A stretch of DNA of 39,681 nt from Coleofasciculus sp. B1-GNL1-01 (GTDB lineage: Bacteria > Cyanobacteriota > Cyanobacteriia > Cyanobacteriales > Coleofasciculaceae): the NCBI GenBank assembly GCA_040220235.1, contig JAVJTO010000007.1. The stretch is one strand, 5' to 3'. Position numbers and translations under genes: made by a program. How positions within the stretch are numbered: the first letter of the stretch is position 1; every line of letters begins with the position of its first letter. The notes under the pieces are model-generated. The model was given only the letters and a program-made list of their open reading frames with translations. It did not search any database and was not told where the DNA came from. This document shows, one piece after another, positions 7,114-23,796 of this stretch.

Positions 7114-7563
7114 ATGAAATTCAAAAAACCAATCCACCGATTAGAAATAGCAAAAGGCAGATACTTCATTACTTTTGTGACCTGGGAACGACTAGAACTA
7201 ACCCCAAACGCTCGACAGGTTGTGCTAGAGGCTTGCCAATTCTTCCACAATCAACGATATCAGATATTTACTGGGGTTATTATGCCAGACCACGTACATC
7301 TACTGATTCAACCTTTCCTCAAAACTGAAACAGAGTTTTGGTCAATTGGCAGTATTTTGCATAGTATCAAAAGTTATAGCGCCAAACAAATTCCCAAAGT
7401 CATGAAACATATTGGGAAAGTTTGGCAAGATGGAAGATATGATAAGCTGATGAGGGATGAAAAGGAATTCGAGCAGTCATGGGAGTATATTAGACAAAAT
7501 CCGGTTAAGGCAGGATTGTCAAAAACTCCGGAGGATTATCCTTTCTTTTGGGAGATATTTTGA
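7114..7563 (+). CDS. rayT: REP-associated tyrosine transposase (RAYT/TnpA-REP, IS200-like HUH Y1 nuclease)
   Basis: YFITFVT, HUH motif MPDHVHLL, WQDGRYD, catalytic Tyr in YIRQNPVKAGL; REPs on both sides. Confidence 0.9.
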   Translation: MKFKKPIHRLEIAKGRYFITFVTWERLELTPNARQVVLEACQFFHNQRYQIFTGVIMPDHVHLLIQPFLKTETEFWSIGSILHSIKSYSAKQIPKVMKHIGKVWQDGRYDKLMRDEKEFEQSWEYIRQNPVKAGLSKTPEDYPFFWEIF

Positions 7564-8994: not shown

Positions 8995-9732
8995 ATGAAT
9001 AATCCATTTGACAAATATCAGATTAGTCCCCATAAGTTAGGGATACTCAGAAACCTGATGATGATGACGACAGGCGCTACAGTAGTTATCGCCCTGATTT
9101 TTGGCATTGGGTTATGGCGCACCGGGTCTCGTTTTTTGGGACAAGTGACAACCCTATTTAGCACCCCTCAACCCGCACCCGAAGTTGACGTGCGCTCCTT
9201 GATTGTCCAGCAAGTGCGGGAGGCTAGCGACTTAACCACGGCGGTGTTTACGATGGAGGCAGTAGTTCCGACTCGTCAAGCTCGGACATTGGCAGGGTAT
9301 CCGATCGCGGAAACCACACTCCTTTATATTGCTTATGGTGAGGTGCGAGCTGGTGTCGATTTGGCAGAACTCAAACCAGAAAATGTGCAAACTGTCAATG
9401 ATACGCTGCAACTTCAACTGCCACCCCCCAAAATTTTAGATAGCAAAATTGACGTGAATCGGTCTCAGGTGTATGACTACGATCGCGGATTCTTGGGATT
9501 AGGTCCCGATACAGCACCCCAGTTGCAGATGTTGGCGCAACAAGAGACGTTGAAAAAAATTGTCTTCAATGCCTGTGAGCAAGGGGTATTAGACAAAGCC
9601 AACGAACGCGCCGAACTGGTTGTGAGTCAGTTGTTGACGACAGCCGGATATAAACAGGTGGAGGTAAATACTCAATCCCCTGTACCAGGTACTTGTCAGT
9701 CGGCGGCGTTAGCCTCTCAGCCTGGTAATTGA
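8995..9732 (+). CDS. DUF4230 domain membrane-anchored protein
   Basis: N-terminal TM; LLYIAYGEVRAGVDL, LPPPKILDSKID, ACEQGVLDKANERA; aaggag RBS. Confidence 0.85.
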   Translation: MNNPFDKYQISPHKLGILRNLMMMTTGATVVIALIFGIGLWRTGSRFLGQVTTLFSTPQPAPEVDVRSLIVQQVREASDLTTAVFTMEAVVPTRQARTLAGYPIAETTLLYIAYGEVRAGVDLAELKPENVQTVNDTLQLQLPPPKILDSKIDVNRSQVYDYDRGFLGLGPDTAPQLQMLAQQETLKKIVFNACEQGVLDKANERAELVVSQLLTTAGYKQVEVNTQSPVPGTCQSAALASQPGN

Positions 9733-9748
9733 GGAGATAGGGAGCAAT

Positions 9749-9772
9749 GTAGAGACGTGCCATGGCACGTCT
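9749..9772 (+). repeat. GTAGAGACG-type REP hairpin (family copies at 16101..16126, 21196..21222, 24307..24330)
   Basis: gtagagacgtgccatggcacgtct. Confidence 0.85.
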
Positions 9773-21023: not shown

Positions 21024-21250
21024 GTTTCTCTCCTCAACATTTTTTACAAATTGCCAAACCCAGATTAGACCATATTCGTGTCCATTGCCCAATATAGCGC
21101 TACGCGCTAGGCAATGGGCAATAGGCAATGGGCAACAGGACTCAAGGTATAAAGGGGGTTACAAAGGTAGATTTGGTATCATGTTTTAGCAAGGCGAGAG
21201 ACGTTCCATGGAACGTCTCTACAAATTCCGATATGGTATTACCCGTTTGT

Positions 21251-22330
21251 TTACTTGGTCTTGGTTTGCCCTTTAGCCTGTTCTAAGGCAATTTCTTTCA
21301 GCGCCTGATAAGAATTGGAATTTGAGGTTCCTTCAATTGCCTTAACTGCTAAATCCTGCACCTGTTTCAGCGCCGCATCCAGTTGTTTGGAGAGATTTTC
21401 AATGCGGGATTCCTGGTTTTCAATGGTTTCTTGCAGCGATTCAATTCGTAGGTTATAGAAGCGCTTTTGTCCGTCGATTTCTAACTGTTGTAAATCTGCC
21501 TTAACTTTAACTTGATTATTCGCGATCGCCTTTCCTTGTTCTTTGGCTTTCTTCACCGCCGCTTCCTTCTCTTGGTCAAAGGCGTCTACCTTAGATTTTA
21601 ACTCATCAAACGTCTTCTCCTGTTGGGCGATCGCCTTTTCTCGTTCCTCCCATTGCTGTTGTTGCGCTTGATGGGCTTCTTCTAGTTCTTTGTACAGGGT
21701 TTTCTGCTGCTGATCATAAGTATCCTGATCTAAATTACGACGTAATTCTAAATCATACTTATACTCTTGTTCGTCCCGTTTCCGACTCTTTTCATAGTCT
21801 TCATTCCGTTCTTTAATCGCCTGTTGATGTTCAGTTTGCTCTTTTTGCCAAGCTTGGCGCAAGTCCTGGATTTCTTGCTCGCACGCTTCTCGCTGTTGAC
21901 TCAGTTCGGCTTCAAAGGCTTTGGAGTTTTCTTCGTAAGTTTCAATTAACTCATCCAGCGTATCTTCTTCAATGTCGTCTAAATCATATAAGGCTTCAAG
22001 CTGTTGGGTTTCTTCGGCAACCGCTTGGCGCAATTCTTGTAAACTTGCCGCTTCAGTTGTGAGTTTTTCCGATAACTCACTCACCGCACCCCCAAATCCA
22101 ACTTGCAACTCAACCAAACAATCCATTGTTGCTGTCATTTTATCAGAAGCGGCAGACAGCTTTTTACTTACAATTCCGGATTGCTGACCATTTTTGGATG
22201 CGCCGTTATTTTTGACCTCTTTCTGAAGTTGTTTTAGTTTACCTTCTAACTCTTTCCGCTCTTTCCATAATTCTTCATAGGATTCGAGGATTTCAGCTTT
22301 GGTATTTTTGCTATTGGGTTTGCTTGCCAT
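21251..22330 (-). CDS. Coiled-coil-rich protein B (paralogue of 22493..23491)
   Basis: E/Q/K-rich helical sequence; start MASKPNSK with gaggt RBS. The longer track start runs through a REP. Confidence 0.88.
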   Translation of the reverse strand: MASKPNSKNTKAEILESYEELWKERKELEGKLKQLQKEVKNNGASKNGQQSGIVSKKLSAASDKMTATMDCLVELQVGFGGAVSELSEKLTTEAASLQELRQAVAEETQQLEALYDLDDIEEDTLDELIETYEENSKAFEAELSQQREACEQEIQDLRQAWQKEQTEHQQAIKERNEDYEKSRKRDEQEYKYDLELRRNLDQDTYDQQQKTLYKELEEAHQAQQQQWEEREKAIAQQEKTFDELKSKVDAFDQEKEAAVKKAKEQGKAIANNQVKVKADLQQLEIDGQKRFYNLRIESLQETIENQESRIENLSKQLDAALKQVQDLAVKAIEGTSNSNSYQALKEIALEQAKGQTKTK

Positions 22331-22492
22331 AATTCTTACCTCGTATATTCTGAATCGTGATGGATAATCGTTGCTCTTTGCTGAGAAATGGTCAAATGCC
22401 ATTCGTGTTAACGGTTGGGTCAGGGCGGGTTTAGTTACCTTATCGGTTTTGTCCAAAACGTTATCGGTAAAACCCGCCCCTACAGAACGGAT

Positions 22493-23491
22493 CTAGGCTT
22501 TAGTTTTTTGTTCATTATTATTTGTAGAACTATCAAAGGCTCTCATTGCCAACGCCTGAGACTGCTTGAGGCTATCCTGCAACTGAGCATAGAGTTGATT
22601 AATTTGTTCAGTCTGCTTTTGAATTGTTTCTTCCAGCGACTGAACTTTGAACTCGTAACTTTGCTTGCTGGCTTCCCATTCTTTATCCAGTAACTCGGCT
22701 TTAACTTTAGCGTCTTGGTGAACGTCTTTAATCGCCTCTTCCCTAGCTTTTTTTACCGATTCCTCTAAGTCTTTGGGGAAGTTATCAACTTTTTGTTGAT
22801 AGTCTTTAAATAGAGGCTGACGCTCTTGCAGGATTTTTTCCCGTTCCGACCAATGTTTTTCTTTTTCTTGGTTGGCTTCGTGCAGTTCTCGTTCTTGGTT
22901 ACGTTTTAAGGTTTCATATTCATCAGCTTCAATTTTGCGCTGACGTTCTAGTTGATAAGTATAGTCAGATTCTTGCTGTTGTCGCTCTTTGGCTAAGGAT
23001 TCAGCTTCTTCCTGAACCTTCTGCTCAAATTCCGCCTGTTCTTTTAACCAGGATTTGTGCTTATCCGCTTTATCTTTCTCAATTGACTGACGCTGTTCTG
23101 TAGTGGTTTGTTCAAGACGTTTCAGGTTTTCCTGGTGTTCTTGGGTGAGAATATGCAAAGCATCAGCGACGACGCGAATTTGTTGCAAGTATTGTAATTG
23201 CTGCGTTTCTACCTGAATGGCTAACTTGAGTTGATCCCCTTTTTCCGATTCGCTGGTTAATTTTTCCGAGAGTTGATTAATAATTGTGCCAAAGTCTAAT
23301 TGTAAATCCGCTAATCCTTTGACAATACTATCAACGGTGTAGGTTGAGGCGACGTCTAGAACCTGTTGATTTTTCTGTTTTTCAGCTTCTTCTTCCTTCG
23401 TGGCGATTTTGGAGTCAATGGTTTTGCGTTGGTTCAGGATTTGCTCAAAGGCTTTAAAAATTTGGTCTTTGCTGTCTTTAGTTGCAACCAC
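22493..23491 (-). CDS. Coiled-coil-rich protein A
   Basis: GTG start after aaggag RBS; ATKEEEAEK, YTVDSIVKGLADLQLDFG; long coiled coil. Confidence 0.88.
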   Translation of the reverse strand: MVATKDSKDQIFKAFEQILNQRKTIDSKIATKEEEAEKQKNQQVLDVASTYTVDSIVKGLADLQLDFGTIINQLSEKLTSESEKGDQLKLAIQVETQQLQYLQQIRVVADALHILTQEHQENLKRLEQTTTEQRQSIEKDKADKHKSWLKEQAEFEQKVQEEAESLAKERQQQESDYTYQLERQRKIEADEYETLKRNQERELHEANQEKEKHWSEREKILQERQPLFKDYQQKVDNFPKDLEESVKKAREEAIKDVHQDAKVKAELLDKEWEASKQSYEFKVQSLEETIQKQTEQINQLYAQLQDSLKQSQALAMRAFDSSTNNNEQKTKA

Positions 23492-23587
23492 AATTAGTCT
23501 CCTTGCTCTCAATAACGTAAATTAACTCGCGATCGCATGTTCCCTAGGTTAGCCTCTCAGGATTGGAATTGGGTGTGATCTGGGTGT

Positions 23588-23710
23588 CTAGTGCAAAGGC
23601 AGAAATAACTGAACAGCTACTATCTCCCCCATCTCCTCCAGCTCCCCCATCTCCCCCAGCTTCATAGTATCTACGAAGCTGCTCAAGTATTTCCAAGGGC
23701 GCTGCACTAG
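23588..23710. mobile_element. 123-bp MITE-like element in the leader of the coiled-coil operon
   Basis: Termini ctagtgca / tgcactag; inner imperfect inverted repeat aaataactgaacagct / agctgctcaagtattt; internal ctcccc-type short repeats. Confidence 0.65.
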
Positions 23711-23745
23711 GGCTTTTCACGGGACTCGCGATCGGCTAGCTTGTT

Positions 23746-23761
23746 TAGTACATTTGTACTA
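23746..23761. promoter_or_regulatory. Cyanobacterial LexA (SOS) box
   Basis: tAGTACatttGTACTa matches the Anabaena-type consensus RGTAC-NNN-D-GTWCB. Confidence 0.8.
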
Positions 23762-23766
23762 TAAAT

Positions 23767-23796
23767 AGTATATTCAGATTCTTCTACAACTGTCAA
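23767..23796 (-). promoter_or_regulatory. Sigma70-type promoter for the coiled-coil operon
   Basis: On the minus strand, TTGACA (23796-23791), an 18-nt spacer, then TATACT (23772-23767). Confidence 0.75.

Follow-up and report, generated by a model that had tools for sequence, protein, structure and literature searches.

We analysed a window of 39,681 nucleotides (nt) from contig JAVJTO010000007.1 of Coleofasciculus sp. B1-GNL1-01 (GenBank assembly GCA_040220235.1). It carries two adjacent genes on the minus strand, referred to here as A and B, which encode paralogous coiled-coil proteins and are preceded by a promoter region with a palindrome resembling the binding sites of cyanobacterial LexA. 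The features of the locus are listed in Table 1, with coordinates given as positions in the window.

Table 1. Features of the coiled-coil gene pair and the surrounding DNA
Feature	Position	Strand	Remarks
-35 hexamer TTGACA	23791..23796	minus	read from the sequence and a promoter consensus scan
-10 hexamer TATACT	23767..23772	minus	18-nt spacer after -35
LexA-type operator TAGTAC-AAAT-GTACTA (TAGTACAAATGTACTA)	23746..23761	palindrome	6 bases after -10; covers the predicted start at ~23760
Predicted 5' leader	23492..23760	minus	inferred from promoter geometry
Strain-specific leader segment, ~150 nt	23590..23739	minus	GGGGAGAT-type short tandem repeats; delimited by alignment with relatives
Spurious open reading frame (ORF), 58 amino acids (aa)	23544..23720		inside the strain-specific segment; a creation of the repeat segment
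Gene A, coiled-coil protein, 332 aa	22493..23491	minus	likely ZicK/ArhD orthologue; GTG start, AAGGAG 7 nt upstream
Mobile hairpin repeat GGGGCGGGTTT...AAACCCGCCC, similar to miniature inverted-repeat transposable elements	22423..22480	minus	between A and B; does not belong to the conserved system
Gene B, paralogous coiled-coil protein, 359 aa	21251..22330	minus	likely ZacK/ArhE orthologue; ATG start
Perfect palindrome of 24 nt, AGAGACGTTCCATGGAACGTCTCT	21197..21220	minus	30 nt past the B stop, between B and ndk

The first-pass annotation of this DNA had placed a TTGACA-18-TATACT promoter on the minus strand upstream of A, with the palindrome lying over its predicted start, and both elements were recovered. 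The promoter matches the consensus at 11 of 12 positions and is the top-scoring and sole such site between 21000 and 24300; the scan returned four other promoter-like sites there, each with 9/12 matches, so that the total of five is at the level of shuffled sequence (mean 4.5). The palindrome thus begins 6 nt past an 11/12 promoter, whose start is predicted from geometry. The complete 16-mer occurs once in the 8.66-Mb genome against 0.7 expected per strand, and AGTAC-N4-GTACT is found at seven loci against 9.5 expected. An NtcA site (GTA-N8-TAC) was considered as the identity of the palindrome and rejected, as it did not fit by eye. The annotation had matched the palindrome to the Anabaena-type LexA consensus, and its 14-nt core, AGTACAAATGTACT at 23747..23760, agrees with the two consensus sequences published for cyanobacterial LexA: RGTACNNNDGTWCB, which Li et al. 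2010 (PMC3091678) quote from Mazon et al. 2004, and AGTACWNWTGTACT, given by Li et al. themselves.

The proteins encoded by A and B are true paralogues, with 33% identity over 337 columns in BLASTP (E = 3e-44). The earlier description of two co-oriented, all-helical paralogues is borne out for A by an AlphaFold (AF2) model built from 27 sequences, in which A consists of three long helices (residues 5-50, 53-223 and 225-318), with a predicted local distance difference test (pLDDT) score of 82 and a predicted template modelling (pTM) score of 0.29. Protein B has a conserved C-terminal tail. In a phylogeny built from 27 sequences of each protein, A and B form separate monophyletic clades with a Shimodaira–Hasegawa-like approximate likelihood ratio test (SH-aLRT) value of 100, and the duplication is therefore older than these families. 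A search at E<=1e-3 returned 1171 homologues, unnamed or annotated as 'hypothetical', while some sources label them 'chromosome segregation ATPase' or 'SbcCD ATPase subunit'. Neither protein gave a match over the cut-off in Pfam, NCBIfam or PADLOC; for B, weak NCBIfam matches to the coiled-coil regions of SMC and Rad50 were obtained, with E values of 0.0016-0.07, well short of the cut-offs. A sequence-based profile search of PDB yielded no match below E 0.3, and Foldseek returned no matches in PDB. The wide VIA-align search recovered generic long coiled coils only (BICDR1, tropomyosin, lamin and vimentin; Z<=9.5, with very large root-mean-square deviations), and its scores are uninformative for long helices according to the tool's own note. 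An anti-phage role, raised in the first-pass annotation, found no support, with no PADLOC family matching A or B at E<=0.01. A cluster in the ESM Atlas, nearly identical to A in features (score 0.99), comprises 77 members with Thermodesulfobacteriota as the commonest phylum, and the protein family may extend beyond cyanobacteria.

The distribution of the pair was determined in 401 genomes of Cyanobacteriota, grouped into families of which f1 is that of the window (Coleofasciculaceae) and f5 corresponds to Nostocaceae by record names. The pair is present in 80 genomes, always in tandem with A followed by B, and all of these genomes belong to the taxonomic order of the window, except for one that falls in the same class. 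Its frequency differs between families: 24 of 25 genomes in f2 and 27 of 45 in f5 have it, and none of the 29 small genomes in f25 does. Upstream DNA was examined for 77 of the 80 genomes, three fragmentary matches being left out. Absence of the box upstream of orthologues had been named in advance as grounds for abandoning the LexA proposal. The comparison did not refute it: in the two families with this architecture, all 29 loci, of f1 (3/3) and f5 (26/26), carry both box and promoter; the box has at most one mismatch in 24 of them and two in the other five, and the TAGTAC-N4-GTACTA-like site is located 67 to 387 nt before A. The promoter is conserved with the geometry CTTGACA-17-TAnnnT: CTTGACA stands upstream of the box, at a constant distance from it, in every one of these loci, and the TAnnnT hexamer ends 4-6 nt ahead of the box in most. 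The arms of the box are nearly invariant, and its 4-nt spacer occurs in 11 forms across the 29 genomes; three relatives (G002, G095 and a contig named Symploca) carry a symmetrical variant, TAGAAC-N4-GTTCTA. After mononucleotide shuffling, a site with at most one mismatch appeared in 0.27% of upstream regions and one with at most two mismatches in 4.8%. Among 48 upstream regions from the other families, none had a site with at most one mismatch and three had a site with two.

The genome, in 172 contigs, encodes one LexA (TIGR00498, 209.9 bits against a cut-off of 110.95). Its product bears the motifs AAGG, GDSM and LKH, which we take, placing them by the presumed positions in E. coli LexA, to be the Ala-Gly, Ser and Lys residues of the cleavage type. 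Residues required for LexA self-cleavage are named in the accessible part of PMC3091678. Boxes with at most one mismatch are found upstream of recA (contig C6, C6:9878, AGTACCTGTGTTCT) and at two ssb genes (C143:22199 and C21:14798), one lying in an ssb/mreB spacer and the other 219 nt before the second ssb, and a box with one mismatch, situated inside a 23-nt palindrome, precedes lexA (C17:7641). Altogether, 144 sites with at most one mismatch were counted in the genome, 55 of which (38%) are outside long ORFs, compared with 21% of the genome.

Alternatively, the palindrome could serve a different dimeric regulator as its operator, or be an element close to the promoter that binds no repressor, its likeness to a LexA box being coincidental. 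LexA binding to the box is a prediction from sequence, the 16-mer occurs at chance frequency, and the site upstream of lexA itself is irregular, the best 14-mer of its palindrome having one mismatch. However, the box fits two published consensus sequences exactly, its arms stay conserved across 29 genomes in which the spacer varies freely, boxes of this class occur only in families with lexA in every genome searched (f1 3/3, f5 45/45), and the same motif is present at recA and ssb. We consider a coincidental likeness highly improbable.

A different regulatory layout was found outside f1 and f5. In 39 of the 48 genomes of other families, tblastn detected a divergent gene of the XRE type, coding for a helix-turn-helix (HTH) protein, no more than 2.5 kb upstream of A, and a gene for a Peptidase_M78 ('IrrE N-terminal-like') protein usually comes next; in those examples that were checked, Pfam confirmed the families HTH_3 and Peptidase_M78. 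A combination of an XRE repressor and a Peptidase_M78 protease is the architecture of damage-cleaved repressor switches, such as DdrO/IrrE of Deinococcus and ImmR/ImmA of ICEBs1. The pairs of these 39 relatives, flanked by an XRE repressor and mostly also by the protease, resemble such switches in gene content, a likeness that holds for the relatives and not for the window. An XRE neighbour and a box with at most one mismatch never occur in one genome. In f2, two or three small genes separate the XRE gene from A. The lexA gene is present in all genomes of f1 (3/3) and f5 (45/45), in one of 25 genomes of f2 (a weak match), and in none of those in f7, f8, f15 and f19. No arhB- or arhC-like genes and no cognate XRE or M78 genes were detected by tblastn in the genome to which the window belongs. 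At one locus of f6 (L086, genome G228), a perfect palindrome TAATAC-ATAA-GTATTA is located at -138 from A, 7 nt after TTGACA; this genome has lexA and lacks an XRE neighbour, and the palindrome may be a variant operator between -35 and -10.

On the basis of gene order and distribution, A and B very probably correspond to ZicK/ZacK (Alr4504/Alr4505) of Anabaena sp. PCC 7120, which, according to the available text of a preprint (bioRxiv 10.1101/553073), co-polymerise in vitro and interact with MreB and ParA, and whose loss alters DNA distribution. The description of ZicK/ZacK fits the genes studied here: two adjacent, co-oriented genes encoding coiled-coil-rich 'hypothetical' proteins with weak SMC-like matches, missing from genomes of picocyanobacterial size, frequent among filamentous forms, and with homologues that share about 55-60% identity. 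This agreement, including the published taxonomic spread of the adjacent genes, supports the identity of the two pairs, as does the gene neighbourhood in Nostocaceae. There, a divergent ORF of about 250 aa is situated upstream of A, with a shared receiver-like N-terminus in 24 of 26 loci, and two of these ORFs, tested against Pfam, proved to be OmpR-type response regulators; this is the neighbour expected of all4503, since all4503-all4501, numbered just before alr4504, are listed as a response-regulator unit in the accessible part of Li et al. (PMC3091678). A third line of support is provided by Nostoc PCC 7120 treated with BMAA (beta-N-methylamino-L-alanine), in which Alr4504 increased 4.35-fold and Alr4505 20-fold together with RecA and SSB (PMC8147232, PMC7354497), such co-induction with RecA being what a LexA box predicts. 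The preprint differs from our analysis in treating the pair as a housekeeping determinant of cell shape, whereas the conserved feature found here is a LexA-type operator on the promoter; its available text mentions neither 'LexA' nor 'DNA damage'.

The pair likely corresponds to ArhD/ArhE as well. The accessible parts of two papers (PMC8400943, PMC4398503) report that the arhA-E genes of Limnospira, with the divergent XRE gene arhR, are induced 8-30-fold by gamma rays, and that Nostoc has conserved versions of two arh products, with about 48% identity. The f2 pair resembles the arh cluster of Limnospira indica / Arthrospira sp. PCC 8005 in forming the last two genes of a co-oriented run, which is headed by a divergent XRE gene in 20 of 24 f2 genomes and includes arhB-like and arhC-like ORFs in 23/24 and 24/24 of them, respectively, as in the published arhR / arhA-E layout. 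The window, in contrast, holds only the last two genes instead of the five-gene arhA-E cluster with arhR, and its pair is under a LexA-type box instead of XRE. Arthrospira is stated to lack LexA by the authors of the arh work, as far as their text was available.

Altogether, a conserved LexA-type box covers the predicted start of a strong promoter ahead of the likely ZicK/ZacK pair, and we predict, as the probable explanation, that the pair is repressed by LexA and released by DNA damage. LexA-type control is supported by the retention of the box upstream of orthologues and by the recurrence of its motif at recA, lexA and two ssb genes. Damage induction is further supported by the XRE gene and IrrE/ImmA-type switch beside the pair in other families and by the published induction of arhD/E and Alr4504/5. 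Like the LexA boxes of recA, lexA, ssb and uvrA (Mazon et al. 2004; Li et al. 2010, PMC3091678, in the accessible part), the box has a 14-bp AGTAC-N4-GTACT core positioned on a promoter, although the target here is a structural coiled-coil pair and not a repair enzyme; in Chroococcidiopsis, ultraviolet C (UVC), H2O2 and gamma rays each elicit a response from a recA promoter that carries a LexA motif, according to the accessible part of PMC13416735. In the proposed mechanism, a LexA dimer would occupy TAGTAC-N4-GTACTA directly past the -10 hexamer and block initiation, and damage-triggered self-cleavage of LexA would free the promoter. A and B would then be made together and could co-assemble into a heteropolymer, as published for ZicK/ZacK, with the polymer acting on nucleoid placement, segregation, or cell or filament shape during DNA repair.

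One could also suppose that LexA binds the box as a general stress or redox regulator, with the pair answering oxidative, desiccation, nitrogen or metabolic stress and not DNA damage in particular. Roles of LexA beyond the SOS response are described in abstracts for Synechocystis and Anabaena, the BMAA papers call alr4504/5 NtcA-controlled and stress-induced, and in the present genome other LexA-like boxes stand before kinases, STAND ATPases and a pentapeptide/NuiA protein as well as before repair genes. Nevertheless, recA, lexA and two ssb genes of this genome bear the motif, this LexA keeps residues of the cleavage type, the pair is found beside an IrrE/ImmA-type switch elsewhere, and its Limnospira version answers gamma rays; a general stress role of this kind appears unlikely.

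Several points weigh against release of the pair from LexA by DNA damage. LexA binding, a start at ~23760 and induction in this organism are predictions, and the genome-wide count of the palindrome is at chance level; what exceeds chance is the position of the box on the promoter and its conservation, not the bare count. In metatranscriptomes, about one fifth of the sampled words were present in nine runs, and contigs from four of these runs, belonging to a relative of about 94% identity, cover A, B and DNA beyond the promoter; such contigs span the promoter to 23875, are neutral on the start at ~23760 and on induction, and could reflect DNA carry-over. The presence of LexA alone does not predict the box, since f6, f9, f13, f14 and f16 have lexA and yet the XRE layout; the rule is therefore that the box occurs only where LexA exists, not that the XRE layout occurs only where LexA is missing. 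For some species, abstracts disagree on whether cyanobacterial LexA is a genuine regulator of the SOS response. The identity of A and B with Alr4504/5 and with ARTHROv5_10470/1 is a likely one, drawn from gene order and distribution. In the accessible part of the table of Li et al. (PMC3091678), alr4504 is absent from the 389 LexA sites of PCC 7120 at p<0.05, and no unit in the published LexA tables matched alr4504/alr4505 or any of 12 box variants of the Nostocaceae loci; either the PCC 7120 box is weak, as in genome G144 with its two mismatches, or the orthology is off. Finally, the available text of the preprint (10.1101/553073) describes ZicK and ZacK as expressed under standard growth, with no common transcript by reverse transcription PCR (RT-PCR), and reports mutant phenotypes without added damage. 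Expression and phenotypes under such conditions indicate that the function of the pair is not limited to damage.

Taken more broadly, the ZicK/ZacK heteropolymer might be a conserved effector of the damage response and not a housekeeping structure, a damage-induced scaffold that holds nucleoids, segregation or septa during repair and is wired in each lineage to the self-destructing repressor in use there, LexA in Nostocaceae and Coleofasciculaceae or an XRE/IrrE-type pair elsewhere; we put this forward tentatively, at slightly less than even confidence. A competing view of the function is that A and B are non-cytoskeletal and act as a head-less SMC/Rad50-like scaffold on damaged DNA, in tethering or compaction, the filament and shape phenotype being secondary. 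It would agree with the weak SMC/Rad50 matches of B in NCBIfam, with the ATPase labels of homologues, with the reported interaction with ParA and the changed distribution of DNA in the mutant (10.1101/553073, available text), and with the link of the pair to damage in two regulatory layouts. However, searches of Pfam and NCBIfam found no ATPase head or DNA-binding domain in A or B, matches of this sort are typical of any long coiled coil, the fold search recovered only generic rods (Z up to 9.5), and the in vitro polymerisation of ZicK/ZacK has been published (10.1101/553073, available text). A head-less SMC-like scaffold thus seems rather improbable to us.

If the damage-released heteropolymer is real, the filament pair would be part of the DNA-damage response, a cell-shape scaffold tied to damage, which would explain the DNA-distribution defect of the mutant and give the SOS repertoire of bacteria a structural member that forms polymers. 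SulA, YneA and SidA are SOS-induced division inhibitors under LexA control that likewise act on cell morphogenesis during repair, and they are small, single proteins. A and B differ from them in being two rod proteins of about 340 aa predicted to co-polymerise, with no sequence relation to these inhibitors. The regulator swap would offer a clear case of a single effector kept under two repressors that sense damage and are unrelated to each other. Three literatures that do not cite each other, on the ZicK/ZacK heteropolymer, on the radiation-induced unknowns ArhD/ArhE and on BMAA-induced Alr4504/5, very probably describe the same two genes. The genes themselves and their damage induction in one lineage are already known; for a conserved LexA operator on the pair and for the regulator swap, the literature searches made here turned up no published account.

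The predicted leader reaches about 270 nt in this strain only through the strain-specific segment (Table 1), which is absent from 7-8 relatives and replaced in them by about 33 nt. Consistent with this, RNA-library contigs of the relative with about 94% identity skip 150 nt at this place and carry 33 other letters instead. The 58-aa ORF matched no family in Pfam or NCBIfam. An Rfam search gave one sub-threshold chance match only. A repeat run resembling the GGGGAGAT-type repeats of the leader is also found upstream of recA (C6). The hairpin repeat in the A-B spacer is present in zero, one or two copies among Coleofasciculus relatives, and many foreign RNA-library contigs stack on it. Look-alike GGGGCGGGTTT...AAACCCGCCCC hairpins are located upstream of lexA (C17 ~7500..7560) and recA (C6 ~9695..9755). 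The palindrome between B and ndk lacks a T run, and the terminator scan did not call it; it is a possible transcript-end hairpin.

Some features of the motif elsewhere in the genome are also of interest. GTAC-N4-GTAC is found at 32 loci in the whole genome, where base composition predicts about 128; this strong avoidance of GTAC may be due to a restriction system. The 23-nt perfect palindrome upstream of lexA (C17:7642..7664) reads GGACATTAGTA-C-TACTAATGTCC, and the regular 14-mer within it has one mismatch, so the autoregulatory site of lexA may be atypical. The only other box with the same spacer as that of the window (AGTACAAATGTACT) is located at C82:112844 (L018:3001) and precedes three small co-oriented ORFs of 88, 125 and 153 aa, for which no Pfam family was found. 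The 153-aa ORF has a paralogue with 46% identity on contig C77. These ORFs are candidate members of the LexA regulon. The locus was considered as the site of arhA-C and rejected, as its three ORFs match neither arhB/C nor any upstream region. LexA-like boxes with one mismatch are also present at C50:44952, C42:30468, C30:106122, C18:6572 and C33:4982; these five sites are located upstream of an NB-ARC/NACHT STAND ATPase, in the gap that separates a GUN4 Ser/Thr kinase from a TnpB-type gene, next to a pentapeptide/NuiA (nuclease-inhibitor-like) protein, ahead of another kinase, and ahead of a pentapeptide/DUF1963 protein.

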